A DNA stretch of 62,978 nucleotides, counting the filler, from Streblomastix strix (taxonomy: Eukaryota), in assembly GCA_008636045.1 (NCBI GenBank). It is 3 parts of 3 records of this genome, joined end to end, with 100 filler letters (N's around TTAATTAATTAA, not from the genome) between each part and the next. Parts side by side here need not be neighbours in the genome. Positions count along the whole stretch, not along the records: positions 1 to 20,931 come from SNRW01000406.1; 2 more parts are not named here. The stretch is one strand, 5' to 3'. The notes below the pieces were generated by a model. That model did no database searches, was not told the DNA's origin, and saw only the letters and a program-made list of their open reading frames with translations. The translations under genes were made by a program, and so were the position numbers. This document shows, piece by piece, positions 1 to 58,009 of the stretch (position 1 is the first letter of the stretch; each line of letters starts with the position of its first letter).

Positions 1-581
1 GAAATTGTATAAGGAACCGCTGTTTGATTTCCTATTAGCTCTTCAATCTCTCGCATACTTATATATGTTTCACACGCTGATGTATCAAAATTATGAATAT
101 TCTCATATAAAGAATGTATATGTTTTCTATTATTTTTCTCACTTTTTGGCTTGATAGTGTTATAAATGAATGATTCAGATGTTGCGTCATTCTATAGGCT
201 TCCATCAATTTTTTTTCCTCTATGATGTATGGTATATTCTCTAATAAGATTCGAACCTGATTTGAGCCCTACGAATAGAACCAATCCGTCTTTATATGAT
301 TCGTCAATTTTATCAAATTTATCACCGAGTTAGATATTAGCCGTTAGCAATATCGACAAGAACGAATTTTATATCTATGTGATGTCGTGGTCTGTATCTG
401 ATAAACTAATTATTATCTCCTTATCAAATAACACTGGCATTTATGATTCTGGTTTGATTTCCTTAATTGAATAATGATGGTCTCCGTCATTAGTGAATGG
501 AACAACGGCTTTACCTAACAATGTTTCTTCAATGGTTCCTGCTTGTTGTAAATGTGTGGCTTTCATTAAGAATCTATTCAT
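1..581 (-). CDS. Candidate major capsid protein, 5' part (truncated by contig edge)
   Basis: With TAA/TAG=Gln reads open: MNRFLMKATHLQQAGTIEETLLG...LFVGLKSGSNLIREYTIHHRGKKIDGSLQNDATSESFIY; homolog of 54188-55901. Confidence 0.6.
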
Positions 582-703
582 CTTTTACATTCAATAAAAA
601 AATGAAATAGTTAAATAAATACTTAATGAAATATAAAAACGTTGAAAATTGGAAAAATCATTGATGAAAAAGCGATATTTTGACATGAGAAAACGACGCT
701 GAT

Positions 704-800
704 TATGAATGGCTTATGACTGGACCGAGTGTGGAACTGGACCGAGTCAAAAGCTACCACATAAAATGCCAGTCGATCCGCCAAATAGTCGAACCATGAA
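704..800 (+). repeat. Inter-module ~100-bp motif, copy 1a
   Basis: ACTGGACCGAGT twice (719-730, 736-747) followed by CAAAAGCTACCACATAAAATGCCAGTCGATCCGCCAAATAGTCGAA. Confidence 0.9.
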
Positions 801-850
801 AAAATAAATATTCCTAACCGTTAATGAATAGAACATAATTTTGTTATTTT

Positions 851-1165
851 TCATTAGTTCTATAATTGTATTCTTCGACTCTGTATATCAATTGGTAATT
901 TTTATTTTAAATATTCGTCATTTCTCAACGTTTCAAAATCTTATCTAAATTATCCATTTTTATCCGCTCCATAGCCATAATCAAGAAATGAGCTAGCAAC
1001 ATCTAAGACTTTGTCTATTGTTTAGCCGACAGGACTCAGTGCTCCAAGTATCGGTTTAGCAAATGGTTTTATGAACGGTTTATAAACGTTATCGTTAGCC
1101 CATTAAAGACCCTTCCCTACTTTTTAAACTAACTATTTGATTTTTGAAAACACTCCTACAGCCAT
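851..1165 (-). CDS. Small viral protein (104 aa) with N-terminal amphipathic helix
   Basis: MAVGVFSKIKQLVQKVGKGLQWANDNVYKPFIKPFAKPILGALSPVG...LQNQ-TGA; frameshifted homolog at 53597-53913. Confidence 0.75.
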
Positions 1166-1240
1166 GATTTACTTATAATAAAAATAAAATTTTATGTGTA
1201 TTATTTTGGATTTGAATAAATGATTTTTTTATTAATGTTT

Positions 1241-1335
1241 TCATGTTTCGACTATTTGGTGGCTCGACTGGCATTTTATGTGGTAGCTTTTGACTCGGTC
1301 CAGTCCCACACTCGGTCCAGACAAAAAGTCATCAA
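1241..1335 (-). repeat. Inter-module ~100-bp motif, copy 1b
   Basis: Reverse complement of the 704-800 motif (TTCGACTATTTGG...GCTTTTGACTCGGTCCAGTCCCACACTCGGTCCAG). Confidence 0.9.
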
Positions 1336-1385
1336 TTAACCGCTTCAAATATCCGTGCAAATTTCACAGATTTCATTAATGTTTT

Positions 1386-2972
1386 TCACAAGTAATACAT
1401 TCCACTAGCGTAATATTTATAAACATCATCGGAATCCATTGGTATTGACTCTTATGGTTCTGATAATTAAAAGTACAACATTTTAAATTAAGCATTTACA
1501 ATAAAATAATTCACTGAAAAATTATTCTATTTTCCGCCCTTTGTACTATATACAGCAGCAGGGAAGCCTAAACTTTTACCATCTGCAGATAGTATAGAAT
1601 CAGTAATACGACCAACTTCTTACGACCTGCCATTTAAACCTTTAGATTCGAAATATAAATTAAATACGCATACTCTGCAAGTGCCATCATCAACGATATA
1701 GAATGTATTATATGCTGATGAAGGGAAAAAATCATTTATCATAAACTGATTATAAACATTTGTTATCGTATATTGTGGTTGTGGTGATGAACTTATTTAT
1801 TTTTCATGTTTTATTATTACTTAGTCGATGAATGAATCAGATGCGGCTTCGTTTGATGCTGATTCGTTGGTGTTTGTGCTGTTCGTGTAGTTATCAAGTA
1901 TATATGTTCCTTGAAATTCACAATCCAGCGTATTTAGTTATCCGCTGACGGCCACCTATACAGCTGACGATTTATCATATATATCGTTGAACAAACGCAT
2001 AGCAGAAAATTCCTTTTGTTCGACAAGAATAGGCATATATTTCATATTTAGTGGTAGTAATTTTTTGCTGATTATCGAGAATAATTTATATACAGTATAT
2101 TATGCTTCATAATTGGCGCATAATTGTGCCAATTTTGCTCCAAAGCTATATACGATAAATGGACCATCTTTAATAAAATATGCTGCTCTATTTGCTTTAT
2201 ATATCGCTAATTCATCCATTAGTTTTATTTCACTGTTCAAATAATTAGTTCTATTTAACCCTTACATTCCCGCCTCGATTAAATTTGTTTAATTTTTCAC
2301 CGTTTCATAGACATACGATTAGGCTTCAAATTTACCATTTCCATTAACAGTCCATGTGTCCACAATTTCAATTTTTCCATCATTATTGGAATCATAATTT
2401 ATTTTTTTCGATGATTCATAATTTTTATAATATGTAATGTTAAGCACAAGAGCAGTATTTGACGGCAGCTACCGAGAGCATATAATAAATGGCCCTCCTT
2501 AATCGATATTACAAAATATGTTATATGTATTAGATGCGTCCGTTCCAACTAATGCAATCACTTAATCACCCTGATTTGGTCTCGCTTCTTGTGGATAACT
2601 TTTAAATAAATATCCATTCGGAAATACACCTGTTGTTGTATATGATGTAGTTAGTGTGATTCTATCGCCATAAACGATTAACTATGGATCTGAACCACTA
2701 GATGCTAAAAAACTTTATCGCTCTAATTATGAACTCAAATCCAATTTCGTTATTGCATTCGGCACTGGTGGCTCAAACTCTTCATTCGAATTATTGATTA
2801 TATCGTCGTTATTTTTCACCTACTACTGCAGAGTTTGGTCTCCAATAGGAACAGGTTGCGGTAGCTCACCAATAGGTTTGGGATAACGTTCTTTGATATA
2901 TGCGTATAATTCTGGGAAGTCAGATAAACCAGCAGCATCTAATAATCTTTAATCGATATAAACGTTCGACAT
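1386..2972 (-). CDS. Viral protein ~528 aa, beta-rich, possibly structural (fibre/decoration-like)
   Basis: MSNVYIDQRLLDAAGLSDFPELYAYIKERYPKPIG...SGMYYL-TGA; length divisible by 3; homolog at 51790-53383. Confidence 0.7.
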
Positions 2973-3048
2973 TTATATTCAATAAAAATAAATAATTAAT
3001 CCAAACAATTTCAAACAATTATAAGCAGAGGCAGCATTAGCACGAAGT

Positions 3049-5915
3049 TCAAAGCGTCCAACTAAATTATAAGCCAACATCATCATTAATACCCCATGCT
3101 TCTGTTGAGTCGGTAGTTATTCGGAATTCTCTATATGAATAAACACATGTTAATGTCTTTCGCGTCATTGCCAATTGTAGTTGATGTAGAAATATTGATT
3201 TAAGTTTTTGGTATAATTTCCATCATTAAAGTATAAAATGTGCCTATCCGTGTAAGTTTTAAATAATTGAATGAAATATTTGAATGTAAATTGACAACTA
3301 AATTTGTTATGTCCTCAACTTGCACTCCTCCAAATGACGATAATAATTGGTCGCCACCGTAAGCCAATAAAACCGATGTCTCATCTTTACCTGTTTTAGC
3401 AAATCCAGCAGAATTAACATTTGAATTGAATGTTTTTGTGCCATATATCGTTTAATTATCATAACGACTAACAAATGCATTATAAATTTCTCCTCTTGTC
3501 AAATAATCTTCATCATACTCCGTGAATTATTTAAAGTTCTTATCCCGTTTTTTTCACATAATTAGAATCATCAACGCTTCCACCTCCAAATTCAGAAATT
3601 GGTTTTGTTCCACCAGCTGCAAGTAAAACAACTGTATCATCAGCACCAGATTTAACAAATTATGAGCCTGTAATTGTTGCCATTCCATCTATTGAACTTA
3701 CGAATCTACAAGCATTATTGAATGTCTTGTTCGCTGTTATTGTCTATGAAGTGCGTAATGTCATATAACCACTTAAATCAACTTCACAAACTTCAATTTA
3801 TGATATCAAATAATCAGTTTCTGTTTTGGTACAAGATGCTGATTGATTTGCCTTTAACAGCAGCAACGCATCATCTTCTCCTTTAGTGTACGAAACTCCT
3901 GAATTGGCTTTATTACTGAGCAAATTATCGGCTTTTCCTTTTGTATATGAAACTCCTGAATAGGCTTTACTATTTAAAAGATTATCGGCTTCTCCTTTAG
4001 TGTATGAATCAATCAATTATGTTTTATCAGCCTTCAACAACAGCAAAGCATCATCTTCTCCTTTGGTGTATGAAACTCCAGAATCGGCTTTATTATTTAA
4101 AAGATTATTGGTTTCACCTTTAGTGTATGCATCAATCAGTTATGTTTTATCAGCCTTCAACAACAAAAGAGCATCATCTTATGTCTTAGTGTATGAATCG
4201 ATTTAATCGCTTACATTTAATTTTTCGTCGAGTAGTACATCGGTTTCAATCTTCGAATATGCATCAATTAATTATGTTTTGTCAGCCTTCAACAACTGCA
4301 ACGCATCATCTTATGTCTTAGTGTATGCATCAATTTAATCAGAAATATTTAATTTTAGATTTAATTTTTAATCTGTTTCAGTTTATGAATATGTTTATGA
4401 TTTATTATAATAATTTGAAAAATCAACGCTTGCATTTATATCCTGTATGGCCTTAACACCACCACCAGCACAAACAACAGAATTATTATCGTAATTTTAT
4501 ACAGATATTCCGACTGATTGGATAGTTGTATTAAATGTCTTTTAACCTGTAATAGTTTCATCATAGTTAGTCGTTATAAATGAACTATTTTTCGCAGGTA
4601 TTAGTGTATTTCCATCAAATGATAAATCTGTTATTGCATGGCCTCCACCTGTAGCAGCTCCAAGAATGGTCATGACGTTGCTCACATCTGGCAGTTCTGT
4701 TTCTAGTGCTCGAAGATTAGAGCCATCCAACCAATAATCCATGACTTATTTATCGACTATATGTAAATTATCACCAATCGCTAATTTTGCAACGTTTTCC
4801 TAATCTTCCATCCAAGTATTCATCTCATCCGTTGTTGCAAATACATATCCTTTTGATTTGCCTGAAGCGATATCTCGAACTTCTTATAGTTATGGCTATG
4901 ATACTAATGAACTTACTAGCATATCACCACAGCCAGCAAGAAGAAAAGAATCATCATTTTTATTTTATTTCGATATGCTTGAAACACTAATTATTCCGAA
5001 TTAGTTTTGGCCTGTTATCGTTTGAGTAGAAGCTAAATCAATATAATCCGCTAACTCCGATTTGTCAGCCTTCAACAACAACAACGCATCATCTTCTTAT
5101 TTACTATAAGCATCGATTCAGTCAGTAATATTTAATTTGTCGTCGAGTAGAGCATCGACTTCAGATTTACTATAAGCATCGATTTAGTCAGTAATATTTA
5201 ATTTGTCGTCGAGTAGAGCATCGACTTCAGATTTACTATAAGCATCGATTTAATCAGATATATTTAATTTTTCATCAAGTAAGGCATCGGCTTCAGACTT
5301 ATTATATGCATCAATTTAATCAGATATATTTAGTTTATCGTCTAGTAGGGCATCGGCTTCTGTTTTATTGTAAGCATCAATTTAATCAGATATATTTAAT
5401 TTGTTGTTGAGTAGAGCATCAGCTTTTTATTTGGTGTATGCATCAATTAGATCAGTTTTATCAGCCTTCAATAATAGCAGAGCATCATCTTCAGTTTTCG
5501 AATAAGCATCAATTTAATCAGATATATTTAATTTATTGTCGAGTAGGGCATCGGCTTCAGTTTTATTGTATGCATCAATTTAGTCAGAAATATTTAATTT
5601 TAATGCAAGCAATTCATCATATTCAATCTTCGAATATGCATCAATGAGCTCTGATTTATCAGCCTTCAACTACAATAAATTATCTTCTTCTTATTTGGTA
5701 TATGTATCAATTTAGTCGGAAATATTTAATTTTTTATCTAGCATTTCATCAGTTTCTTCACGATTACAAGGTTCAGGCGCTTCATTAACTATATTTATTA
5801 AATTTTCAATATTTTTTACTTCGTTAATTAAGCCAATGGTGTTATACTTACTTGAACCATAAAGCACTTAATCATGATTTAAAACAACATCATGCATATG
5901 CAAATCTCCGTCCAT
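3049..5915 (-). pseudogene. Repetitive fibre-like protein (frameshifted near 3' end)
   Basis: ATG 5915; many 20-aa repeats IDAYxKxExDALLDDKLNISDQ, QTITGxKTF spacers, GADDTVVLLAAGGTKPISEFGGG modules, C-terminal small beta domain ending ..FSWTL-TGA. Confidence 0.75.
5050..5760 (-). repeat. 60-bp coding tandem repeat array (second array ~3800-4420)
   Basis: GCATC(A/G)ATT(T/C)A(A/G)TCAG recurs with a 60-nt period (e.g. 5110, 5176, 5242 region). Confidence 0.8.
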
Positions 5916-5946
5916 TTTATAAAAATAAAAATAATTTATTATGATA

Positions 5947-6516
5947 TCATATTTTATTTAACACAGTCATTAATCCTTTAGATACTGTACTAATAATTTT
6001 ACTTGTTATTTCTCCTAAATCTAAAATACTTGTTATTTTTCTTATTTTTTATAAACATATTTTATAGCTATCCCTTAATAAATTTACTTTTTCGACGTAG
6101 AGCTTTAATAAATTTACGTTTCCAATCAATATATCATTTAATGTTTAAGTCGAATCGCTGCAAAACCTACCACAACATCCTTCATCCTCTACACTCAATT
6201 AAATTTAACTTTCTGGGACGTCGAATGTGTAGGCAACAACCCGAATCAATTAATTTTCAGGTAATATGAAATGCACTGATTCTTTAATCATATGCTCGTC
6301 TTCACTAATGATATCCAACAGCCAACTACACACTGAATGGTCTGGAGATAATGTTTCTTCAAATATTGAACTTCTGCGTCTAGCTGAAAACGTTGGCGTT
6401 TCACATCTGATAACCAACGCCTGAAATTGTTGCTGAAATGGTTGCTAAAATGGGTCAATTTCTTTATCAAATTATGGTTCCACTTCTGGAATAGTTGGAC
6501 TCTTCATTTTAGTCAT
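5947..6516 (-). CDS. Conserved viral hypothetical protein (~189 aa)
   Basis: MTKMKSPTIPEVEPQF...; 570 nt; homolog at 48279-48887. Confidence 0.7.
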
Positions 6517-6581
6517 GTTAAAAACATTTAATTATTCACGTAAAATAAAAACGAAAATTGAATTGATTGATGGCCAAATAT

Positions 6582-6680
6582 TAATGAATGACTTTTTGTC
6601 TGGACCGAGTGTGGGACTGGACCAAGTCAAAAGCTACCACATAAAATGCCAGTCGATCTGCCAAATAGTCGGAAGATAAA
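6582..6680 (+). repeat. Inter-module ~100-bp motif, copy 1c
   Basis: TAATGAATGACTTTTTGTCTGGACCGAGTGTGGGACTGGACCAAGTCAAAAGCTACCACATAAAATGCCAGTCGATCTGCCAAATAGTCG. Confidence 0.9.
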
Positions 6681-6765
6681 AAACTAAAAAAAATAAAAAA
6701 ATAATCTTATTTTAAAAATAAACGAGTTTGTTATATACAAATTTAACTTTTTAACAATAAATAAA

Positions 6766-9200
6766 ATGGCAGCTTCATAAGTAGAGTCAGTCAAAAATCA
6801 AACAAATGCAATAAACAACATATTATATCCAACTGAAATAACTGATGATATGACCGATGAACAAAAGAAAAAGAGATAAATTAACAAAATTTTATTAATT
6901 ATTCAATCAAATATATCAAATAATAATTCGAAATATAATAATGTAATTATTGGCGAACGTATCAAAGAAGCAATCACTCCATTATATAACTATAAGAAAC
7001 ATACGGATGGAAAAAAAGGAACAAAAACAGGTTAAACTGTTGATATAGGCAAATGTGATGAATAATTATGCGTAATGGATTTTGATATAAGGAAAGATTT
7101 AATGGATGAAAAAATATCAGAAATAAGAAATAAGATTATTGAAAATTTACCTTCTAATGTTGGACTCGTTAAGACTGTACATGGAGGCTTACATATATTT
7201 TTAGATAGACATAGATACACACTTAAAAATAATTCATAAATCAAAATCATTCATACTGAAAACTTTGATGTAGATATATTTGCTCATATCGATGAAAATT
7301 AAAGACTTGTAGTTCTTCCAAACTCAACAACCAGAGAGGAGAAAAATATGAAAAAAATAAATTTGAAATATTATGATTTAAATAATATGATGGAAAAAAA
7401 TAATATAGCAAAATTAGACGATATATTAGATATTTATGGTGATGATTTACGAGCCTAATTTGAAGAAGAGAAACCGATTATAAATAATGATGGTTCAATA
7501 AGAAAAATGAATTAAGAATTGGCTCATTTATTAGTTGATGGAATTTAACATTTATAGATACATAATGATGCTTAGAAAGTCGAACGAGAAATAACGTTAT
7601 TATGTTTAATTACATGATTAAATGGGCTTGCATTTGTGGATGGATTATCAGAAGATGAAATTAAATATTACGTTGATGATACTTATAACAAAGTTTAAGC
7701 AAAAAATAATTTAACTGATAATGCGATTCAAAATTGAGAGCTCAAATGGTCACGATTTTATTTGAAAGCTAATCCATGGGTTCTATAAAAGATTGTTAAA
7801 TATCATAATCCATAGTATAACATCGATATTATAAAGCCATATTTATAATCAAAGTTAAAAGAAAAAAAAAATAAATTAGTATATTTGGTATTGACTTAAG
7901 AGATGATTTTACACTCATAGATATATAAGAAAAAATATTTAATGGTGAATACAAAATGTAAAAATATAATTAAATTGCTTAAGATTTAACTCGAATTCTA
8001 AGACATTCACCTAGTCATGGCGGATTAGTATTTATCATCAAATAATACAATACAATAAATAAAAAAAATAAATTTGAATATATGACTAATACAGCTGCTT
8101 ATGATTAATTATAAATAGTAAAAATATGTGATGATGGATAGATGAAAATAACATTAAAATATATATTTGAACAATATAATTCTTTATTTGCTTTGAGAGG
8201 TATTAGATTTATAAGTGATGAACCGAAAATTTTCAGTATGTTTTAAGGCTATAAATATTAATAATTATCGTCGGTTAATGAAGACCTAATTAATGATTAT
8301 TTATTATTAATACATGAAACAATAGCAGCAGGTGATGATGATTTATATAATTATATTCTAAATTGGATTGCACTTATTATATAAAATGCAGGTGTAAAAT
8401 CAGAGGTGGCATTGATATTATAAGGTAGTTAAGGAATAGGCAAGAACAGATTTACAGATGTTTTATGTGAATTATTAGCTGGTTATTCAATTAAAAATAT
8501 TACAGATATTAGCAAATTTACAGGCCAATTTAATTCAGTCGTTGAAAATATAATTCTTGGAGTAGCTAATGAACTAAAAAATTTTGGAGAAGCGAGATAT
8601 TCAAACATGGATGCGTTGAAGTCAATAATAACAGATGATTCAATAAGAATAAATGAAAAAAATTAACCTCGCAGAACATCAGAAAATGTAATGAATTTGA
8701 TAATGGTAACAAATAACGATTTCTCCATCAAGATTGAAGCTAATGATAGACGTTATGTTGTATGCAGATGTAAGGCAGTCCATAGGGACGACGTTGAATA
8801 TTTTACATCTCTATCTAATAGCTTCACAACTGAATTTTACAATAATTTATTTACTTATTTTATGACCAGAAATATTGAAGGCTGGAATCAAAGAATCATT
8901 CCATTCACAGAAACGAAAAAGGACATAATTAGAGCTTCGCGTTCATAACTTGATGATGTAATCTTTTAAAATTATTAAGCGTTTAAAGAAGGTGTGCCTT
9001 GTAGTATTGCACTATAATTTAAACCATTCGATGTTAAAGAGAAATTATTCTAATTATAGCTCAAAAATAAATGTCAAAGAATTATAAAAACCATTAATGA
9101 AAAGCGAACATGGATTTATAAATTGAATGAAGATTTGATAAAATTATATGATAGATTAAGAGAAGAAGATCAAGATATCAATGAAGACGCTAACATTCGA
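6766..9200 (+). pseudogene. Primase-polymerase / SF3 (D5-like) helicase fusion
   Basis: N-terminal VMDFDI and KTVHGGLHIF prim-pol motifs; Walker A GSQGIGKN, Walker B region GVANEL, motif C IMVTNN, ANDRRY; in-frame TGA at 7615 and 7735, frameshift in poly-A ~7865. Confidence 0.85.
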
Positions 9201-9220
9201 ATAATTAGTTTATTTATTTT

Positions 9221-9315
9221 TTCATGTTTCGACTATTTAGCGGATCGACTGGCATTTTATGTGGTAGCTTTTGACTCGGTCCAGGCCCACACTCGGTCTA
9301 GTCAAGACATTCATA
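9221..9315 (-). repeat. Inter-module ~100-bp motif, copy 1d
   Basis: Reverse complement copy: TTCGACTATTTAGCGGATCGACTGGCATTTTATGTGGTAGCTTTTGACTCGGTCCAGG. Confidence 0.9.
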
Positions 9316-9555
9316 ATCCAACCCATTTCTACGTGCCAATTTCATAAAATTCATCAATGTTTTGTCTCAATCCAATCAATCCAATCCATTAATGATTATC
9401 AAACAAATATATTTTATGTTCAATTTTATAATGGTTTCACTAACGAAGTCATCAACGAATTCACTAATAATTTTAGGTTTCCAAATATAATAAAATTTCA
9501 TTTGTTCAAAAATCATCAAACAAATTAATCAACTAATTCCATCAATCTTCCTATG

Positions 9556-9807
9556 TGGTTATGAGAATATGGAGAGTGATATACGTTCAAAAATCATACA
9601 TCATTAATCGATTCATTAATCAACTTCATTAATTAATATCAATAATTATATTCAATATCATATAATCGTTAACTAAACACATATGAATATTCGGTACTAC
9701 ATTATTTATTTATTATTATTTATTATTATTATTTATTTTCATTATTTTATATTCATTATTTATTTTATTTTTCTATGTGGGGCACTCTCCATATTCTCAT
9801 AACTACT
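9556..9807 (-). repeat. Element terminus with subterminal inverted copy
   Basis: GTGGTTATGAGAATATGGAGAGTG (9556-9579) is the inverted copy of CACTCTCCATATTCTCATAACTAC (9783-9806); homologous to 44577-44845. Confidence 0.8.
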
Positions 9808-10875
9808 TGCGTTGCTAATATGTAAAGGAATAAACACGGATCTTATGCGAGCGTCTGCAAATATTTGCAAGATTTCCTCTTTTTTATGTATTTTAAGATT
9901 ATACTTTAACAAAATTGCTTCTTAATTTTCTCCCAGCATTGACGGCCGTAAGAAATCAACGTACGAAATTAGAACGACAATAATTCAAGCTCTGAAGATG
10001 GCAGAATTTACGTATCCCTTCGGCCTGTGTTCTATTATAACATCGACATTAAACTTGAGACCTGTAGCATGTACATCAGCATCAAGTATGACTCGTTTTG
10101 TAACAACAAGCGAAGGCATCGTATCGCCGTATGATGCTATAGCAGACATAACTGTGTGAAGATTACTATTTCTTTTGACCTTATAATGCAATTACTGGTT
10201 TGTTGTTCCTGCAGTTACCTGCATAAGCGATAGTTTTGCATCTGGCCAATCTTGTGATCCGGATTCATTAATTGCAAAAACTGCGCATGTTGGTTTACCA
10301 ATTACGTAATTGACGAGACCGGAATGATATCTATCGCAGTTCTATCGATTTACCTCCATCCTTCAACTTTCTCAATGGCTACATCACTATTTAATAACTT
10401 CTTCATAGTGACGGCTGAGAAAACTCTCATCGAATGCTCATCCAACTTACGCATGAAATTCTTCCATAATATATGTAATGAATGCGGAATATGTGTATGG
10501 TTTGTCAATTTTAAATTATTCTATTAGTTTCACAATCATTATAACTTCATCAGGATCGGTATTACGCCTTCGATTATGTATTTCTCGTTTGACTTTCCCT
10601 TTTAGACCATTAACTCACATAATCGAGATTTCATTAGTATAAAGAGCTCCACAAGTGTTCGATTCGAAAATATTATATCATGACAAGCCTTTATTTCATC
10701 GAATAAAGCTCATGCTTGTTCTTTGAAAGAGAACAGTGGTTATGCGCCAATACGCATTAAAATTCGAACTGCTACGTGCTCATTATATATCTTAGTCGGT
10801 TTTTATTTAATATGCTCAACTGTCAACATTTCACGCTCTGAACTTATGGAAATAAATTGAATTTATCAACCCATA
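9808..10875 (-). pseudogene. pogo/Tc5-like DDE transposase relic, cut by the viral insertion
   Basis: VFAINESG..., HTVMSAIASYGDTMPSLVV, KGYVNSAIF, AILLKYNLKIH, SVFIPLHISNA, then the virus terminus; internal stops and frameshifts. Confidence 0.7.
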
Positions 10876-11898: not shown

Positions 11899-12739
11899 TA
11901 TATCTCCAGTTGATTAACATTCACATTGATCTGTTGGAATTCCTTTTAGTTTTGATGAATCAACTGGACATCGACAACCATTGGGGTAATCAGTATCTGT
12001 ACAGAAGCATGAATTAAGAATATCAAATGGTTCAGAATCAGTAGAGGTGCATAAAGGAGTGCATCCTTCTGGTATATCATTACTAGTACATGTTTTTGTC
12101 GCTCTGCACAAATTTATCATAAATGTGGCATCTTCGTGTTTATCGCATACACAGCTTTATTCATTATCTGGTTAATAGTTTTCAGTGCAGAAACATCCTC
12201 TCATTGATGGATCAAGTATTCCCTCTATGCAATCTTCAGTAACAGGACAAGTTGTTCCTGCTCTTATATCTCCAGTTGATTAACATTCACATTGATCTGT
12301 TGGAATTCCTTTTAGTTTTGATGAATCAACTGGACATCGACAACCATTGGGGTAATCAGTATCTGTACAGAAGCATGAATTAAGAATATCAAATGGTTCA
12401 GAATCAGTAGAGGTGCATAAAGGAGTGCATCTTTAAGGAGTATTTAATACTTAATAATACTTTTGATGAATAACATTCACGTAAAGGATTTCCAGATGGA
12501 TCTGGATTTGTATCGCAAATACATGTATCTGGCTCTCCAACAACTCCGGAGCATAGGCAATCTTCTTTATCTAGGCTTAAGTCCCCTGTACAAATTTCAA
12601 GATTATTATGAAATTTATTTCTTAAGGTTTTTGAAGAAAGTGAAGTGAAATCTGTAGAAGCTGTTTATCTGTTGTTATCACTCAAGACAATCGTCGCAAT
12701 ATTTAAAATTAATGTCAAAATTAGAATTTTTAGTAGCAT
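11899..12739 (-). CDS. Secreted/surface cysteine-rich repeat protein (3' end unresolved)
   Basis: Signal peptide MLLKILILTLILNIATIVLS; CxC-rich units (CFCTDTDYPNGCRCP...CEC); exact 167-bp duplication 11899-12065 / 12265-12431. Confidence 0.65.
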
Positions 12740-42060: not shown

Positions 42061-43280
42061 CCTGGGCACATATCTATAGTTATAACAATTATGGCTGATG
42101 ATCCTTCTCCACCTCCATTTTTCATACTTGGTGGTATTCTAAATGTGCCTAAATATCTCCAGGTGTTGATAGAATAAACAGGAGTTGGAATTGTAGCAAA
42201 CGGATCGGGATTGATGACAAAGGACGTTATGAGAATTTTTGCACGATTTTTAAGAGATTGAGTTAGAAAAATGAGAAAATTGGGACATTTTAAGAAAAAT
42301 GAATAAATTCTCTTTTTTATGGACGCACATACTTCAAGAGATGATTTAGAAGCAGTGACTACTCTTGCAGAAGAACGAATTACATTATTAACTTTCCCTT
42401 CAGCAATTACTCACATTATTCAGCTTGTTGATAGAGTTATAGCTCGTGAATTCAGAAGATGTTTCAGAAAGTTACTTCTCAGGTTGGCTTAACGTGCACG
42501 CAATGAAATATTTAATGGCAAACTTTCAACAGCTACTATGAGGGAATTGATTGTTTAAGCAGCATATGACACTTGTTAACAATCGTGTGTTGCAACAAAT
42601 CGATGGATAGCGTTTTTCTCAACAGGCTTATGGCCTAGATCGTCTCAAAAAGCTTGCTAATCGAGATATGTAATCGATGATTCTGCGGCATCATGTCATT
42701 CAGAAGGTAGAAAAACTTCAAGAAAAACTGCTAGTGCAAGAAATTTGACTAAAGAACTATGCCCAGACAAAATCAGAAGAAAACGAAGTCCTTAAGAAGT
42801 TCAAAATGGAAATAAGATTAGAAGACTTAATTCAGCAGAATCACGTTGCTAAGAACGTGCTTGAAAATAATTACAAGAAGGAAAAAATAATGACGTTGAT
42901 TCAGCTGAATGGGAAGATCTTGGCAATGAAAGCAGCGAGGAATACGTTGAAACAAAATTAGGCAAATCTGCAAAGAATAGGCGCGATTACACATATTTTC
43001 CAATTTAAGAAAAAAAAATATCTCGCTCCGGAGGCGAGCAAAGAAAATGTAACTATTTTGTTGAAGAAAATTTTATTCTGAAACAAATATCTGCTCAAAA
43101 ATTGATAAAATCCAAGAAAACTGCAAAGCTAAGAGGAACAACAATAATTGAATCTACAAAATCAGAAAAAGATGCCGTTCCAGAACGAAGCACGATTTTT
43201 AAGGACAATAACTAAAAAAAGAAAAATCAGGCAAGTTTGAATCTTTCAAACAAAAAATCGCAACAACATTAACTCTAGAA
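42061..43280 (+). pseudogene. pogo/Tc5-like DDE transposase relic (5' truncated)
   Basis: HISIVITIMAD, NGSGLMT, ILFFMDAHTSR, LTFPSAITHIIQLVDRVI, AFFSTGLWP; in-frame TGAs. Confidence 0.8.
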
Positions 43281-43289
43281 GTGATGAAA

Positions 43290-43673
43290 TTGGAGCTTTC
43301 TGGATTAGAAAGATCTATAATTAAAAATAGAGGGAATGGGAATTGTTATTTCATGGCTGTGAGTCACTAACTGTATGGAACAAATATGCTGCATCGATAA
43401 ATAAGAGTTATTGCTGTAAAGGAGCTAATTGAAAATAAATAGAAGTATCAATAAGAATTTGATGATAGCAAATCATTGAAAGAATATGCTGATAAAATAA
43501 TCTGTGATGGTAAATTTGCTGACGCCAGAATTAACCTACCAATGTATCAATCACAAAAAGTGAATCTAAGAATCTATTTTGGTGAAAATCACTTTGAAAC
43601 TATCAACAAAAATGCTCAGAAATGGGTCGAAATAGCTTATGTGGACAGAATCCACTATGTAAGCGTTGTCTGA
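43290..43673 (+). pseudogene. OTU-family cysteine protease domain
   Basis: IEGMGNCYFMAVSHQLYGTNMLHRQIR ... IAYVDRIHYVSV (Cys and His boxes). Confidence 0.75.
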
Positions 43674-44576: not shown

Positions 44577-44845
44577 AGTAGTTATATGAAAAATGAGAGT
44601 TTCCCACATTGAAAAATAAAAATAAATAATGTAAAATAAATAATTATAAAAAATAAGGAAAATAATTATTGTAAAACAAAATAACATTTATAAATATTGT
44701 AAAAGAAAATAAACACTTGAAAAAAATTATTGAAAGAACATTAATGATAGTGATGTACGAATGTGGATATTGAAGTATGTTAGTGATGTACGTTTTTGTG
44801 TGCTATTAATGAATGTATGGCACTCTTCTTTTTCACATAACTACA
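44577..44845 (+). repeat. Element terminus with subterminal inverted copy
   Basis: GTAGTTATATGAAAAATGAGAGT pairs imperfectly with ACTCTTCTTTTTCACATAACTAC (~44822-44844). Confidence 0.75.
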
Positions 44846-45073
44846 TAGGGCAAATAATAGCTTAGTTGATGAATGATCATTAATGGAAACCTAAAATTTG
44901 TTGAAGTTTCTTCGCTGAAATCAACCACAGCGGAGGTCTTACCAACCTTTTGAAATCTTTGTATATTTGAATATAAAATATGAATAGATATGTTTAAACT
45001 GCGTTAGATTGAGTAGATAGAATCATAAAACATCAAAGAAATCTATGCAATTGCCACGCAAAAATGTGATGAG

Positions 45074-45175
45074 TAATGCATGACTTTTGACCGGATCGAA
45101 AGAGATGAGATGACCGAGTCAAAAACTTCTATAGAAAATAGCTGCCCGACTGCCATTCTGCAAGAAGTGAGAAAT
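45074..45175 (+). repeat. Inter-module motif, copy 3a
   Basis: TAATGCATGACTTTTGACCGGATCG...GACCGAGTCAAAAACTT...GCTGCCCGACTGCCATTCTGCAAGAAGTGAG. Confidence 0.8.
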
Positions 45176-45196
45176 ATTAATAAAAATAAGTTTAAT

Positions 45197-47658
45197 TCAA
45201 ACGTTAATTGAACCATTAAGATCTTCATTAACGACTTAGTCTTCATCTCTTAATCTATCGTAAAATTGTACTTAATCTTCATTCAATTTATAAATACATA
45301 TTCGTTTTAATTGATCTATTTTCAAATTCATTGACATTTATTTTTTAATTATGACTAGAATGATTTCTCTTTAACATCGAATGATTTGAATTATAATGCA
45401 AGAGTACAAGGCACACATTCCTTAAACTATTGATATATTTATAAAATTTCATTATCAAGCTATGAACGTGATACTCTAATTATATCTTTTTTCGCATCTA
45501 TAAATGAAATAATTCTTTACTTCCAATTATTTATATATCTTGTCATGAAATAAATAAATGAATTATTGTAGAATTCGGTAATGAAACCATTTGATAGTGA
45601 TGCGAAGTATTCAACATCATCCCTATGAACTGTCTTTCATCTACATACAACATAACGCCTATCAGTAGCTTCAATTATAACTGGAAAAACGTTGTTGGTT
45701 ATCATTATCAACTTCATTACATTCTCCGATTTTCAACGCAGATAATTTTTTTCATTTATTCTTATTTGATTATCTGTTATTACTGACTTCATCGCATCCA
45801 TGTTCGAATATCTTGCTTTTCCAAAATTGTTAAGTTCATTGGCTATTCCAAGGATTATATTTTCAATGACAGAATTAAACTTACCCGTAAATTCATCAAT
45901 ATCTGTAATATTTTTAATTGAATAACCAGCCTATAATTCACATAAAACATCTGTGAATCTATTTTTGCCTATACCTTGACTGTCTTACAATATCAATGTC
46001 ACCTCTGATTTAACACCAACATTTTATATAACAAATGCAATCCAATTGAGGATATAATTATATAAATTTCCATCACCTGCTGCTATCGTATCATATTTTA
46101 AATTTAAATAATCATTAATTATGTCCTCATTAACAGAGGGTAATTATTAATATAAATGGCCTTAAAATATACTGAATATTTCAGGGTCTTGACAAATAAA
46201 TCTAATATCTTTCATCATAAATAATGAATTAATTTATTCGCAAACTTATTTCAATGATTTAATTTTTTAATTTTCTTTTCATAGAAGAGTCATCTATAAT
46301 TGTTCATATATTGCTGTATTATTCATGTATTAAATGTTATATTTTTATTTAATTGCATCATTTTATTTCACTATAAATGCTAAGCCACCATCGCATGGTG
46401 CACAATGTAATATTCCAGTTAAATTTTAAGCTACTTATTCAATCTTTTAATATACTTTATTTATTATATTTTTCTATATATTTAATAATGAAAAATTATC
46501 TTTTAAATCAATTGATTACTAATTTTTTTTTCTTCTTTTAACTTTGATTTTAAATAAAGCTTTATAGTATCGGTGTAGTACTTCGAATTAAGATATTTAA
46601 TAATCTTTTATAGAACCCATGGATTAACTTTCGAATAAAATCTTGACCTTTTGAGCTCCAGATTTTAAATTGCATTTTCGGTTAAATTATTTTATACCTA
46701 AATTTTGTCGTAAGCATCATAAAAGTATTATTTAATTTCTTCTTCAAGTAATCCATTCACAAATGCAAGTCCGTTAAGTCCTATATATAAGTATAATAAT
46801 GTTATCTCTTGTTCGATTTTCTGAGAATCGTTATGTATCTATAAATGTTTGATTCCATCAATTAATAAATCAACTAATTCTTTATTCGTTTTTCTTAATT
46901 TTCCATCATTCATTATAATCGACTTTACTTCTTCAAATTATGCTCTTAAATATATACTATAAATATCTAGGACATCATTTAATGTCGTAAAGTTCTTCTT
47001 TTTTTTAATATATTATTTAAATTTTCATATTTTAATGTTTTTCTTTGATTATTTTTTTAAGGCTTATATGTTGATTTCGGAAGTACTACAAGTATTTAAT
47101 TTTCAACGATATGAGCAAATATATCGACATCAAAGTTTTCAGTTTTAATGATTTTGATTTATGAATAATTTTTTAATGCGCATCCATCTCTATCTAAATA
47201 AGCATATAATCCTCCGTATGCTGTCTTAGCAAGTCCAACGTTTGAAGGAAAATTTTCAATAATTTTAATTCCTATTTCTTTTATTTTTTCATTCGATAAA
47301 TCTTTTTTGATATCAAAATCCATTACGTATAATTAATCATCACATTTGCCTAGATCAACTGCTGAACATGTCTTAGAACCTTTTTTCCATCGGTATGTTT
47401 CTAAAAATTATATAATGGAGTGAATTCATCTTAGATATGTTTGTCAATAGTTAAATTATTAAATTTCATGTTATTTTATGACATATATGTTTAAATAGCT
47501 AATAAAAATTTGTTAATTTATCTCTTTTTCTTTTGTTCATCGATCATTTCATCGGTTATTTCAGTTGGATATAACGTATTGATTATTTGACCAGTTCGGA
47601 TGGCTGATGGACTTTAATTGACGACACATCCGACAGATTCAAATTCTTTTGTTGCCAT
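45197..47658 (-). pseudogene. Primase-polymerase / SF3 helicase fusion
   Basis: Homolog of 6766-9200 (VMDFDI, KTAYGGL, QGIGKNRF, IANELNNF, TDRRY); frameshifted. Confidence 0.85.
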
Positions 47659-47777
47659 TTTATATGCTGTTAAAAAGTTGAAAAATATAAAAAAAATTTT
47701 TGAGTTTATTTTTAAATAAATTTAAATATTTATTATTTATATTTTTTATTTGACACAAGTTTATTTTTATTTATTTT

Positions 47778-47876
47778 TTTCACATCTTACAGAATAATAG
47801 TCTAGCAGCAGTTTTTGATGAAAATCTATGACTCGATCCACCCAATCCGCTCGGTCCAGTTAAAAGAAATTCATTA
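47778..47876 (-). repeat. Inter-module motif, copy 3b
   Basis: Minus strand TAATGAATTTCTTTTAACTGGACCGAGCGGATTGGGTGGATCGAGTCATAG...AAAAACTGCTGCTAG. Confidence 0.8.
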
Positions 47877-48278
47877 TCCTACCCAATTATGCGTTTTAAA
47901 ATCATGTACTTTTTTTATTGCAAAATTCGTGTTCATCAATAGTTCAAGATTTCGATTTAAACATCATTTTTGAATTCTACGCATTAACATTGAGTATAAG
48001 TAATATTCTTTAAGTTAAATTCAAATATTAATTTTTTAACTTATTTTTTAGCTTATTTTTTGGTTTTAATTAAGGACCCTATATAGAAATTAAAAAATAT
48101 TTAAAAATAAAAAAAAAATTACCTTTATTTCCATGAAATTTTAAAATCACCTGATAATCAAAAATACACACAATTCATATACGCTGATTCCGAATATGAC
48201 CTTTTTAGCTCAATCTGAAACGATTGATTAGGCTCAATTATCGATTTTATTTTAAATAAATAATTAATTATTTTTATT

Positions 48279-48887
48279 ATGATTAAAATGAAAAGTCCAA
48301 TCATTCCAGATGTAGAACCATAATTCGAAAAGGAAATTGAAGTGAATGCGATTATGATTGCAGTTGCATCTTAAATTGGTCCATTTCAGCAACCATTCCA
48401 GCAACCATTTCAGCAACAGGTCATTAGATATCAAACGCCATCTTTGTCAGCTAAGCGCAGAAGTTCAATATTTAAAGAAACATTAACTCTAGACCCATCA
48501 GTGTGTTGTTGGCTGTTGGATACCATTAGTGAAGATGAACATATGGTTAAAGAATCAGCACATTTCGTATTATCTGAAAATTAATTGGTTCTGGTTGTTG
48601 CTTACACTTTTGACGTCCAGTAAAGTTAAGTTCAATTAATTATAGAGTATGGAAGATGTTGTGGTAGGTTTTACAGCGATTCAATTTAAACATTAAATGA
48701 AATATTAATTGGGAACGTTAATGATCTGAAACTAGACGTCGAAAAAGTAAATTTATTAAGGGATAGCTATAAAATTTGTTTATAAAAAATAAAATAAATA
48801 ACAAGTATTTTAGATTTAGGAGAAATAAAAAGTAAAATTTTCAGTGCAGTATCTAAAGGATTAATGACAGTGATAAATAAATTTTGA
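48279..48887 (+). CDS. Conserved viral hypothetical protein (202 aa)
   Basis: MIKMKSPIIPDVEPQFEKE...QQPFQQPFQQ...GRCCGRFYSD...; open with Gln code; homolog of 5947-6516. Confidence 0.7.
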
Positions 48888-48919
48888 TATCATTAAATAA
48901 TTATTTTTATGTTTATAAA

Positions 48920-51723
48920 ATGGATTGAGATTTACATATGTTTGATGTAGTTTTAATTTATGATTATTTACTTTTTTGTTCAACTAGATATAACACTATT
49001 TGCTTAGTACAATAAGTCAAAGACATTGAAAATTAAATAAATAAAATTAATGATGCCCCATATCTTTATAATCGTGGAGAAATTGATGAAATGTAAGATA
49101 AAAAATTAAAAATTTTCGATTAAATTGATGCTTACACTAAATAAGAAGATGATACTCTGTTGCTGTTGAAAGTTAATAAAACTGAGCTCATTAATGCATA
49201 TTTGATAACAGAAGATGATGAGTTGTTAGCATTAAAATTAAATATTTCTGACTAAATTGATGCGTACAATAAAACTGAAGTCGATGCCCTACTCGACAAC
49301 AAATTAAATATAACAGATTAAATTGGTGCATATTCAAAAGCAGAAGATGATGTCTCTTATTGTTGAAGGTTGATAAAACAGATATTATCGATGCATATAC
49401 CAAGATAGAAACTGATGAAAAATTTGATTTTAAAGCTAAAATCGCAGATATTGTTGATAGTTATTCAAAGACTGAAGATAATGAATTAATATTATAGAAA
49501 ACAAATAAATCCGAATTGATAGATTTATATTCCAAGACAGAAACTGATACTAAATTGGATGAAAAAGTCGATAAAACTGAACTAGATGATTATGTTGCTT
49601 TGACGTCTGCTTAAACAATCAATGGTACGAAATAATTCAATTCAAATGTTAGTGCAGCAGCATTTGGGAAAACGGGTAAAATGATGCTTCTATTCTTCTT
49701 GCTGGTAATGGAAATATGTTAGTGAGTTCATTAGTAACGCAATCATAATTATAAGAAATTAAAGACATAGCGACTGGAAAATCAAAAGCGTATGTATATG
49801 ACACATAAAATGATTTGAATACATGGATGGATGATTAAGAAAATGTTGCAAAATTAGCCATGGTTCAGAATTTGTACATTATTGATAATGAAATTGTGGA
49901 TTTTTGGTGGTATAGAACTAATCTTCGAGCATTAGAAACAGAACTGCCAGATATGAGCAACGTCATGACCATTCTTGGAGCTGCTACAGGGGGAGGCAAT
50001 GCAATAACAGCTATATCAATTGATGGAAACACAATAATACCTACAATAAGTACCACATTTGTTACCACTGGAAAGGACCAATCTATTACTTGGATGAAAA
50101 CATTTACAAATATTATTATTACATATGGTATTCAATATTCAGGATACGATAATAACTCTGTTTTTCTTGCTGGTGATAGAGTTTGATCAATATCTGATAT
50201 AGCTTCAAAGGTTGATTTGTCTAATTATTTTGATAAAACTGAAACAGAATCTTTGCTCGAAGACAAAGCAGCTAAACAGCATTAAATGATTATATAACTT
50301 TAGGTACTTCGTAGAAAATAACAGCAAAAAAGATATTTAATAATAGTTGCTGATTTGTAAGTTCAATTGATGGAATGTCATCAATAACTGGTTCATCATT
50401 TATTAAATCAGGAACTGACAATACTGTTGTATTATTCGGAGCTAGAGGTACAAAACCAATAGCGGAGTTTGGTAGAGGAAGCATTAATGATTCGAATTAA
50501 GTGAAGAAAACTGGCTAAAATCAGTAAGTTATTAAAGGATTTACATGAAAGGATTATGAAGATAATGAAGAACCATCAGAAGTAGAAGATGATTGTATAA
50601 CTTGAGAATATGCGCAAAATATATTTATTGGTATATTGGGTAAATAATAAACTATCCATGGTTTAAAATATTTATTGAAAACATTAGAGTTGACCGATTC
50701 ATTAAATAAAATGGAACAAATTAATAAGTATTATTTGCGAATTGAGATTTTAAACTACTAGCTGAGTTCGGTAGTGAAAGTATTGATGATACAAATTATG
50801 TGAAGAAAACAGGATAAGCAACATAATCAATCGAAGGAAAATTAATTTGAAGTGGAATTATCGAAACATTTAGTGAAGCCAATATTTCAAAATAAATGTC
50901 TAAAGATTAAATTGCTGGAGGATGCGCACCTACAAATGGAGGAGGAGATGTTAATGGAAATATTACAATAGGAGCATATATAGCAACATCTGGGAATATA
51001 ATTTCTACATCTTTTATTAAAACTATTGGAACGAATCAACAGGTACTACTGGTGAATGGAACAACTAAACAACTCTCTGAATTCGGTAGTGGTGGAGGTG
51101 ATATTAGTAATTATGTTTAAAAAATAAGAGCAGATGTTTAAATTATTAATGGAAAACTAAGAAAAGGTGAAGATGATGATGAAGAATCTGATGCAGATGA
51201 TTATTTAACGAGAGGTAAATATAGTTTTAATACGAATAAAATTATAAATAAGTTTTATGTTTGAAAAATAAGGTAAAATTCATAAAACGTTAGAGGAACA
51301 CTATTATACGTTAATCCATTCGGTATCGAAAAATGATGATTCTCAAGAACTGACAGATCCCACTTATCCTACATCGCATGAAATAAATAATGTTATTACG
51401 TCAAAATTCTATAATTTCTATCAAATATTAACTTCACCAGTAATATTATCAGGATTTACAGCATCATAATCTAATTTCATAAAAATAGATGGAGTAATGT
51501 ATTTCTTTTATTTTGTTATCAAGCTAAATGATAGAATATAATCGTCACAAGGTCATGATATTGTACTTTTAATCCTCCACCATTATATTCACTATTTTGT
51601 CCAATGAACAATGATTACATGGCCATACTTATGACTGACGGATACGAACATTTTATTACATAATCAACAGTATGGACATAGAACGAAAATATTGTTATCA
51701 ATACATTTTGGTTTAGACTATGA
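48920..51723 (+). pseudogene. Repetitive fibre-like protein
   Basis: Homolog of 3049-5915 with a different module count; several TGA and frameshift lesions. Confidence 0.75.
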
Positions 51724-51789
51724 ATCTATGCTTCTGCATATAGTTGCTTGAAATTGTTTAGAATAATTATTTAATTTTGTTGAATATAA

Positions 51790-53383
51790 ATGTCGAACGT
51801 TTATATCGATGAAAGATTGTTAGATGCAGTTGGTTCATCTGAATTCCCAGAATTATACGCATATATCAAAGAACGTTATCCTAAACCTATTGGTGAATTA
51901 GCGCAACCTGTTCCAATTGGGGACCAAACTCTGCAATAGCAAGTGAAAAATATTGATGATATTATCTATGGTCAAGCGATAGCTCCAATGAAGTATTTGA
52001 ACCACTAGTGCGGAATATTATTATGAAACTTGATTTAAATTCGTAGCGGGAATGAAAAAGTTTCTTAGCATTTAGTGTTTGAGACCCATAATTAATCGTT
52101 TATGGCAATAGAATTACGCTAACGGCTTCATATGCAACAACAGATCTATTTCCGTACAGTTATTTATTCAAAACTTATCCCCTAGAAGCCAGACCTAAAT
52201 CAGGTGATTAAGTGATTGCATTAGTTGGAACCGAATCTCCTAAAACATATGTTATATTTTGTTATATCGACTAAAACGGACCTTATATTGTCAGTTCCCG
52301 ATAATTACCTTCAAATTCTGCACATGTATTTAATATTATTTATTATTAATAGTATGAATCATCAAAGAAAATAAATTATGAAGTGAATAGAAACGGAAAA
52401 ATAGACTTTATGGATACTTGCAATGTTAATGGAAAAGGAACATTTGAAGCATAATCATATGTCTATGAAACAGTAAAAAAATAGTCTGATTCAATCGAGG
52501 CAGGAGTGTAAAGATTAAATAGAACCAATTATTTGAAAAGTGAAATTAAATTAAGAGATGAATTAGCGATATATAAAGCAAATAGAGCAGCATATTTCAT
52601 TAAAGACGGTCCATTTATCGTATATAGCTTTGGAACTAAATTTGTATGTTAATTCTTACTAATTCTGAAGCACAATAAACTGTGTATAAAATATTCTCGA
52701 CAATCAGCAAAAAAGTACTACGACTAAATACGAAATATACGCCAATTCATGTAGAATAACAAAATTTTTCTGCTATGTGTTTGTTCAAGGATATGTATGA
52801 TAAAACATAAGCTGTATAGTTGGCCGTCAGTGGATAATTAAATACGTTGGATTGTGAATTTTAAGGAACTTATATACTTGATAATTACATGAACAGCACA
52901 AACACCAACGAGTCAGTATCTGAAGAACCCGAATCTCACATCGACGAAGTAATTATAAAACATGAAAAAATTTTAGGTTCATCACCACAACCACAATATA
53001 CGATAACTAATGTTTATAATCAGTTTATGATAAATGATTTTTTCCCCTCATCAGCATATAATACGTTTTATATCGTTGATGATTGCACTTGTAGAGTATG
53101 CGTATTCAATCTATATTTCGAATCAAAAGGTTTAGATGGGAGAACGTAAGAGGTTGGTCGTATTTCTGAATCTATATTACCATCTGATGGTAAAAGTTTA
53201 GGCTTCCCTGCGGCTGTATATAGAACAAAGGGCGGAAGATAGAATAATTTTTCAGTGAATTATTTTATTATAAATTCATAATTTAAAATGTTATACTTTT
53301 AATTATCAGAACCATAAGAGTCAATATCAACGGATTCAGCTGATGTTTATAAATAGTGTGCTAGTGGAATGTATTACTTGTGA
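51790..53383 (+). pseudogene. Viral ~530-aa protein
   Basis: MSNVYIDERLLDAVG...SGMYYL-TGA; homolog of 1386-2972, frameshifted. Confidence 0.7.
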
Positions 53384-53430
53384 AAAGCATTAATAAAAAG
53401 CATTGAATAGGAGCGATAATTTGGTTTGGT

Positions 53431-53530
53431 TAATGAATGATTTTTGACTGGACCGTGTGGATTGGGTGGATTGAGTAAAATGGGTTCTATGAAAAATACC
53501 AGTCGATCTGCCAAATAGTCGAAACATTAA
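53431..53530 (+). repeat. Inter-module motif, copy 3c
   Basis: TAATGAATGATTTTTGACTGGACCGTGTGGATTGGGTGGATTGAGT...CCAGTCGATCTGCCAAATAGTCGAAAC. Confidence 0.85.
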
Positions 53531-53596
53531 TAAAAAAATCATTTATTCAAATCTAAAAAAAAGCACATAAAATTTTATTTTTATTATAAATAAACG

Positions 53597-53913
53597 ATGG
53601 TGATTGACATATTCCATAAAATTTAGCAATTTGATTAAAAAATAGGGAAGTGTCTTTAACGGGCGAATGACAACGTTTATGAACTGTTGATAAAACCATT
53701 TGCTAAAAAAACTTCTAAGAGCTTTCGGTGCTTTCGGTTAAACAGCAGGTAAAAGATTTAGAGGATGCTTGTTCATTTCTTGATTATGGTTATGGTGCAG
53801 ATAAAAATGGCTAATTTAGATAAGATTTTGATATTTTCAGAAATGATGAATATTTAATATAAAAATTACTCATTGAAATACAAAGTCGAAGAATATAATT
53901 ATAGAACCAATGA
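53597..53913 (+). pseudogene. Small amphipathic-helix protein
   Basis: Homolog of 851-1165; frameshift ~53705. Confidence 0.7.
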
Positions 53914-53960
53914 AAAATAAAACAATTTATAAAAAAAAATAGCTAATTTATTTTTTATAT

Positions 53961-53995
53961 TTCATTAACTATTTGGCACGTTGGCATATTGTGAG
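53961..53995 (-). repeat. Inter-module motif remnant, copy 3d
   Basis: ACTATTTGGCACGTTGGCAT = minus-strand ATGCCA..GCCAAATAGT, at the position equivalent to copy 1a. Confidence 0.5.
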
Positions 53996-54187
53996 CAATT
54001 TTTAAGAATAATTGAAAATGTCCTCAGGATATGGGCACTCTGATCACTTTAAAGTCATTCACTATCTGCATTAATTCTTCGTACCAAAATCATGAACTTT
54101 TATGTTTCATTATCGAAGTTTCAATAACAGATTTTTATTTCATTAAGTATTTATTTAACTATTTCATTTTTTTATTGAATGTAAAAG

Positions 54188-55901: not shown

Positions 55902-56017
55902 GAACATTTTTGTTTTTTTATCTATGTATATAGCTAACATTTAAACATTAATAATAACTTTAACAAAATTGGTTAATTAGTTATATAGGTATTTTTTTTT
56001 ATTTTATTTCATAACAA

Positions 56018-57970: not shown

Positions 57971-58009
57971 GTCGGTCTTCCGACCTCCGTCTGTGGCTCG
58001 TTTCAGATA

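Follow-up and report, generated by a model that had tools for sequence, protein, structure and literature searches.

The window analysed here, a stretch of 62,978 nucleotides of DNA from the termite-gut protist Streblomastix strix, contains two decayed, integrated copies of one element, a Polinton-like virus, at positions 1-9807 (copy 1) and 44577-62978 (copy 2), in which blocks of viral genes are separated by a repeated motif that alternates in orientation from each boundary to the next. The motifs evolve in concert within the virus lineage. With a probability that we put at about one half, the motif is predicted to act as a protein-bound internal replication origin or enhancer cassette, resembling the homologous regions (hrs) of baculoviruses and homogenised by gene conversion. 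The two copies are mutually inverted, collinear homologues whose long alignments are 75-81% identical, and their open reading frames (ORFs) were read under table 6, where TAA and TAG encode glutamine.

In copy 1, where the motifs are of type A, they lie at 9211-9320 on the minus strand (M1, after the helicase end and about 490 bp inside the terminus), 6580-6690 on the plus strand (M2, between a divergent 186-aa ORF and the primase-helicase), 1230-1340 on the minus strand (M3, between the end of P528, a 528-aa gene, and the start of a small gene) and 700-810 on the plus strand (M4, between the capsid gene start and the small gene end). Alignment and a leave-one-out profile placed four of the copy-2 motifs, namely M1 (45072-45180, plus) and M2 (47771-47880, minus), both of type B, M5 (57870-57980, plus) and M6 (59931-60041, minus), and M3 of this copy lies at 53429-53540 (plus). 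Leave-one-out nhmmer searches recovered 9 of the 10 motifs at E <= 2.7e-14, so that four copy-1 and five copy-2 sites stand at the places and on the strands given for them in an earlier note on this DNA. The tenth, a minus-strand remnant of M4 that the note put near 53961, keeps its position by synteny and lacks profile support: it was assigned to about 53960-54070 by orthologous position alone, with a leave-one-out E of 3.2. The host DNA between the two elements in the window gave a best match to the motif profile of only E 1.9. Exact motif patterns were found neither in metagenome contigs nor in viral contigs, and the sole match of a looser pattern in prokaryote genomes, on the bacterial contig L002, was rejected as due to chance, as it had no motif-profile support and no tblastn match to the family proteins.

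Read from the terminus, the order is M1 (plus), helicase, M2 (minus), fibre block and P528, M3 (plus), small gene, M4 (minus), capsid block, M5 (plus), ATPase-like gene and divergent ORF, M6 (minus) and a probable polymerase, such that the modules are bounded by inverted motif pairs, as the note had described. Since the copies are homologous, the strict alternation that it reported counts as one observation over six positions (chance 2/64 = 0.03) and not as ten independent sites. The motif is richer in GC than its surroundings (0.36-0.49 vs. 0.28-0.30 for the element) and occurs at divergent, convergent and tandem junctions, both as claimed. The statement that it lies only between genes is true in a loose sense: the upstream ORF has a stop codon that the motif at 57870 overlaps, and the copy-1 motif at 9211 is read through by the helicase frame. 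Some gene junctions lack a motif, namely those within the fibre block, those within the capsid block, and the one that separates the divergent ATPase-like gene from its neighbour.

Each motif of about 110 bp starts with TGAATGA, followed by the arms TTTTGACT and AGTCAAAA, which enclose three tandem 9-mers (nnnnCGAGT) and are followed by shorter repeats. In two type-B copies, three TGCCA at 8-bp spacing come after the 9-mers, and then an A-rich tail. The type-B left half has a period of 9/18 (autocorrelation 0.54-0.67 in three copy-2 motifs), and the type-A motifs of copy 1 have a period of 17 (0.52-0.64). The motif contains one imperfect palindrome of about 40 bp around the tandem 9-mers, and the arms pair in the consensus fold, with a covariation term of +0.67 and 1 of 13 pairs compensated. 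An Rfam scan at the motifs returned nothing of note, the single match having E = 7. We therefore rejected a structured RNA or ribozyme, given this Rfam result, inconsistent single folds and the absence of covariation support. Judged by its sequence, the motif is more likely an array of DNA sites for a protein than an RNA.

The concerted evolution of the motifs is seen in copy 1, where all four are 90-94% identical and their flanks are unrelated past about 110 bp. When same-position motifs were compared across the copies, the identities were 62, 74, 79 and 60%, against a shuffle mean of 57 and a maximum of 72, while the long alignments of their flanks reach 75-81%, and the approximately unbiased (AU) test, run on eight motifs, without M5 and M6 for want of a counterpart in copy 1, rejected the tree of position-wise pairs with p = 8e-5. 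Exchange between motifs is borne out by the concerted evolution and by M3 of copy 2, a mosaic with a type-B left half and a type-A right half. The copy-2 motifs are only 60-81% alike, so that homogenisation has not always been recent. An outer-side extension of 40-60 bp is shared by M3 and M1 of copy 1 and by M1 and M6 of copy 2 (1340-1385, 9320-9363 and 60041-60090), which indicates that some exchange tracts passed the core.

Predicted proteins of relatives carry traces of the same process. Near-identical motif translations occur at different positions, after the helicase in P0524 and between the small gene and the capsid in P0527, and an M5-like variant stands at the M3 position in the relative P0381. 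Among 707 proteins we found six period-3 runs, in which a GAGT unit is possible in 4 and excluded in 2. Two of these 4 are found in P0685, a distant helicase model of about 51% identity, where the runs of the tripeptides ECP and TQD correspond to the two strands of a single 9-mer, GTCCTGAGT, and compatibility with such a one-9-mer, two-strand reading is confined to 28 of 2,680 tripeptide classes. This suggests that the architecture persists while the 9-mer unit changes in both members of a motif pair.

The note had proposed mapping module order and orientation across copies, and the canonical order proved to be kept. The window copies are collinear across M1-M4. Beyond them, where the evidence comes from predicted proteins and locus tags, the tag comparison covered 186 records for the capsid, 149 for P528 and 80 for the helicase, and left out metagenome records and most short-contig cluster members. 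After removal of three rows whose contigs could not have accommodated the two genes together, 24 same-length contigs remained, and in all 24 the nearest capsid tag was 1-3 from P528; for the four below 6 kb, equal length is no proof of the same contig, and tags carry no strand. On the contigs of 10 kb or more, those able to show an inversion, the fibre module was canonical in 13 of 13 cases, a count that still permits an inversion rate of up to about 20%. The gaps between helicase and P528 tags were 3, 5 and 5, and those between helicase and capsid tags 5 and 5, plus 3 to a second capsid on a 56,927-bp contig. The orientation of the helicase and ATPase modules was compared on the window copies only. 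Contigs of four runs over 1-10500 showed no strand-changing joint among the best 15 of 232, which, the contigs being short, is no evidence against inversion.

Fused gene models offer a second view, as 94 of the 707 proteins span two regions or contain an antisense piece. Among the 50 models that contain the small gene, it is canonical in 48, order-reversed in one (P0359) and antisense in one (P0296, where it follows P528). Nine further models join P528 or fibre to capsid and skip the small gene; the count of inversions is too low, since fused models favour sense pieces and these nine omit the gene. In four antisense joins and two order reversals, the breakpoint falls within a gene and not near a motif. 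Chimeras formed during amplification are over 85% inversions, primed at short complementary sites, according to the accessible text of PMC1855051, and a reference title in PMC10120064 describes the named S. strix assembly as single-cell metagenomics. The window itself contains a 10,389-bp inverted repeat (20932-42059) with 6 mismatches, a 350-bp spacer and host-like genes, its outer ends bearing N gaps; a fold-back from amplification or assembly is its likely origin. P0296 fits an inversion or a chimera and, given the antisense joins elsewhere, the amplification chimeras and the window palindrome, is not above background. A hint of motif-linked rearrangement may be read from three further sequences: P0524 runs from helicase through a motif into an antisense capsid, P0685 has a sense and then an antisense motif after the helicase, and in L001, the single locus returned by a protein-led search of the metagenome, similarity to the element ends within a 25-nt motif remnant. 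L001 has a capsid gene with this remnant upstream and then TGCCGCAT repeats in both directions (1686-1848), beyond which lies a spliced host-like gene that is glycoside hydrolase-like by eye. Taken together, these sequence comparisons do not support frequent module shuffling where the data could show it.

The hr-like cassette, roughly an even chance by our estimate, is favoured because of the motif anatomy, its placement, the concerted change, the stable gene order and the encoded primase-helicase. The hrs are origins and enhancers in collinear genomes, as set out in the part of PMC4758234 available to us. An hr-like origin was one of the options listed in the note and fits best among them in that the repeats are dispersed and intergenic, although it does not extend to the 28-30-bp palindromes of hrs. 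We suppose that a virus-encoded protein, either the primase-helicase or the KilA-N protein, would bind the 9-mers. Strand displacement during replication would let the inverted copies carried by the displaced strand anneal and convert each other, as happens between terminal repeats. Alternation would be kept by selection: loss of an essential block would follow wherever two neighbours were direct repeats, while an inverted pair would at worst flip one, and any flip would leave the alternating pattern.

Several points weigh against this proposal. Any part of the motif in protein binding, replication or transcription is a prediction from its sequence. The AGTAGT end implies protein-primed initiation at the termini, as described in the available text of PMC8097293, so that internal origins are not required. 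Moreover, the motif is not an array of 28-30-bp palindromes, unlike hrs; homogenisation in copy 2 is old or partial, given the 60-81% identity there; the evidence from other copies is indirect, coming from predicted proteins and tags; and the gene model P0296 fits a motif-bounded inversion.

The motifs could instead be recombination sites that flip or swap modules, in the manner of shufflons or of herpesvirus isomerisation, with homogenisation as a by-product of crossover, a possible but unlikely explanation. It would account for the inverted pair around every module and the mosaic at 53429, and it could draw on the antisense small gene after P528 in P0296, the arrangements after the helicase in P0524 and P0685, the end of similarity inside the motif remnant of L001, and the nine models without the small gene, which could conceal inversions. 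What it does not explain is the collinearity of the window copies, the capsid tag at 1-3 from P528 on all 24 contigs, including all 13 of 10 kb or more, the stable helicase-P528 gaps (3, 5, 5) and the canonical small gene in 48 of 50 models. Furthermore, six breaks away from motifs (four antisense, two reversals) stand against one motif-compatible case, most chimeras that amplification produces are inversions primed at short complementary sites (PMC1855051), and no recombinase, which the note had suggested seeking, was recognised among the window ORFs, one element end lying beyond the window. Frequent inversion, swapping or excision of modules at the motifs, for which the note had suggested recombination sites, thus finds no support in the collinear copies, the 13 contigs and the 48 models. 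Somewhat less probable still is a transcription boundary, that is, a bidirectional terminator, insulator or promoter cassette like the PeSL cassettes of phages. All six motifs do stand at block boundaries, about 0-130 bp from a start or stop on at least one side; in the copy-2 orientation, a run of co-oriented genes starts opposite the 5' side of each minus motif, and one ends opposite that of M3 and M5, and the motif tail is A-rich. However, on the 3' side four of the motifs meet a stop and two a start, no motif lies inside blocks or at the divergent junction of the ATPase-like gene and its neighbour, and RNA structure is without support (covariation +0.67, 1 of 13 pairs; Rfam E = 7 only).

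Alternation is most directly predicted by segmentation, in which the motifs would be processing sites releasing each module as a linear segment and the element the joined provirus of a segmented virus. Inverted ends for every module follow from it at once, full-length helicase and capsid relatives in metagenomes are mostly on contigs of 2-4 kb, about one module, and a segmented polymerase-B virus with similar terminal repeats, Vesanto virus, exists (PMC8363768, as far as its available text goes). Nevertheless, we regard segment ends as distinctly improbable: an ordinary AGTAGT end lies outside M1 and none of the motifs carries AGTAGT, the order is fixed across copies, no resolvase was found in the window ORFs, and short contigs also arise from repeats, low cover and the selection of full-length proteins. 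The wider conjecture of a capsid-encoding Polinton-like virus that is segmented or isomerises, with the element as its joined provirus, appears improbable too, if a little less so; processing or crossover within the alternating cassettes would then provide each module with inverted ends, and modules might replicate, flip or be exchanged as units. Finally, it is very hard to believe that the motifs are miniature inverted-repeat transposable elements (MITEs), or the terminal repeats of small transposons that brought the helicase, small gene and ATPase modules. The inner modules are indeed bounded by inward-facing copies, but the window host DNA has no copy, the flank alignment revealed no shared flank or target duplication, and the genes between the motifs belong to the viral core and keep their positions. 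Thus the note's own counter-case, an independent MITE scattered through host DNA, receives no backing, there being neither host-DNA copies nor terminal repeats of the motif's own.

The element itself is of a kind already known. Both copies end in 5'-AGTAGT, at 9802-9807 on the minus strand, where the homology between the copies stops, and at 44577-44582 on the plus strand. As stated in the text available for PMC8097293, 5'-(AGT)2 is the commonest Maverick end motif, and the ends at 9807 and 44577 are thus those by which a Maverick-Polinton or Polinton-like virus is recognised. At the copy-1 end, the contigs of run X1 drop in summed depth from 94,510 to 123 over 9.5-10.5 kb, figures that are no copy number. 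About 230 bp inward from this end, the terminal sequence recurs as a short inverted duplicate (9556-9578 and 9785-9803), which was not found in copy 2. Each copy has only one end inside the window, the far end of the element lying beyond it. Neither an rve integrase nor a tyrosine recombinase was recognised in the window ORFs scanned by profile, several of which have no assignment, with one element end beyond the window. Outside the elements, the sequence beyond the copy-2 end has a DDE_1 transposase (E 2e-7) and an OTU-like ORF, at 42271-42864 and 43284-43673, and beyond the copy-1 end a broken frame (9900-10800) in the same relative direction looks transposase-like by eye; the one frame scanned gave no Pfam match.

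For the capsid frame, 234 relatives were found at E <= 0.001, and each of the 120 listed among them is named Streblomastix strix. P0008, a relative of the copy-2 capsid frame, is predicted to fold as a double jelly roll (pLDDT 90.5), and its model matches the PBCV-1, Sputnik and iridovirus capsids with a Foldseek E of 1e-13; a PDB sequence search gave no match. Elements of the Metamonada capsid group that use the host code were already reported from S. strix by Bellas et al. 2023 (PMC10120064, in the part available). Because of the AGTAGT end, the double-jelly-roll capsid and these reported relatives, the window element is a Polinton-like virus of a known kind. The Metamonada group was left without placement in the available part of a 2026 preprint (10.64898/2026.06.19.733378). 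At E <= 0.001 the capsid family comprises 546 representatives, many from metagenome records, and the helicase has relatives in Monocercomonoides exilis and Histomonas meleagridis as well. When loci were sought by their proteins among viral contigs and prokaryote genomes, no relative was found.

Among the genes of copy 1, the primase-helicase gene (6766-9209, plus; D5/NrS-1-like helicase), the sole gene of the module M1-M2, is in pieces and matches DUF5906 at E 7.8e-19. PHROG "DNA primase" families match a relative of it, and primase-like N-terminal motifs were read by eye. On the minus strand follow the 186-aa ORF (5947-6507; unassigned in function after a Pfam scan), repeat-rich fibre-like ORFs with 66-bp tandem units (2973-5915), for which the label of putative fibre comes from the earlier note, P528 (1386-2972; no Pfam or PHROG match), the small 104-aa gene (851-1165), and the 5' part of the major capsid protein gene (1-581), cut by the window edge and assigned by homology to the copy-2 capsid frame. 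The repeat number and arrangement of the fibre-like ORFs differ between the copies (3500-5760 vs. 49080-51260), with breaks unrelated to the motif, and copy 2 has about 330 bp extra between M2 and the 186-aa ORF (47881-48270). The small gene, the sole gene of the module M3-M4, has no Pfam match and is kept in 50 gene models of relatives. Its product has an amphipathic-looking N-terminal helix, which we take to recall the membrane-active proteins of adenoviruses. Copy 2 adds, on the plus strand, a broken major capsid protein gene (54186-55900; the frame of which P0008 is a relative) and a broken KilA-N-like gene (56646-57348; weak here at E 0.009, 5e-9 in the relative P0600). An ATPase-like ORF (58032-58700, minus) has Walker-like motifs by eye and no profile match of note, and the ORF divergent from it (58643-59911, plus) has no profile matches. 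A long broken ORF (60545-62978, plus), cut by the window edge, is probably the 5' part of a DNA polymerase B gene, given exonuclease-like motifs seen by eye; it gave no Pfam match and no convincing PHROG match. In the host DNA, a 179-bp direct repeat of 97% identity (11899-12077 and 12265-12443) lies in a cysteine-rich host-like frame.

Replication of Polintons is generally attributed to their terminal repeats alone. A strictly alternating cassette inside the element that evolves in concert would point to a second layer of replication or transcription control in a gut-protist virus group, and the 9-mer array offers a concrete candidate binding site for the primase-helicase or the KilA-N protein. 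Hundreds of endogenous copies with different 9-mers would provide a record of how repeat and binding protein change together, and the cassettes may explain why elements of this type assemble in module-sized pieces.

The cis-architecture is real and apparently undescribed, in a known class of element: in the literature searched we found no internal alternating cassettes in Polintons, and supplement genome maps, notably those of Bellas et al., could show such repeats. The Metamonada-group Maverick-Polintons of Streblomastix are alike in reading TAA and TAG as glutamine, in the divergent double-jelly-roll capsid, the high copy number and the primase-helicase; the accessible text of PMC10120064 describes their terminal inverted repeats, and not internal alternating cassettes or concerted evolution. 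Baculovirus hrs resemble the motifs as dispersed, intergenic, lineage-specific repeats in collinear genomes (PMC4758234, in its available part). In hrs, however, 28-30-bp palindromes form variable arrays, and the genomes are circular and about 130 kb long, whereas here one fixed cassette with tandem 9-mers occupies each site, in strict alternation, in a linear element of roughly 20 kb or more. Shufflons and herpesvirus genomes likewise invert segments between inverted repeats, but in the present element no recombinase was recognised and no orientation polymorphism rises above background. The PeSL cassettes of T4-type phages are also repeated intergenic regulatory cassettes that recombine together; as far as the text available for PMC2839356 goes, they bring about gene gain, gene loss and mini-circles among non-essential genes, whereas the cassettes described here bound core genes in a kept order. 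Vesanto virus of Drosophila, too, is a polymerase-B virus with related inverted repeats bounding its gene units (PMC8363768, in the portion accessible), yet its units are separate segments, while those of the Streblomastix element are joined in a fixed order in one element with its own terminus.

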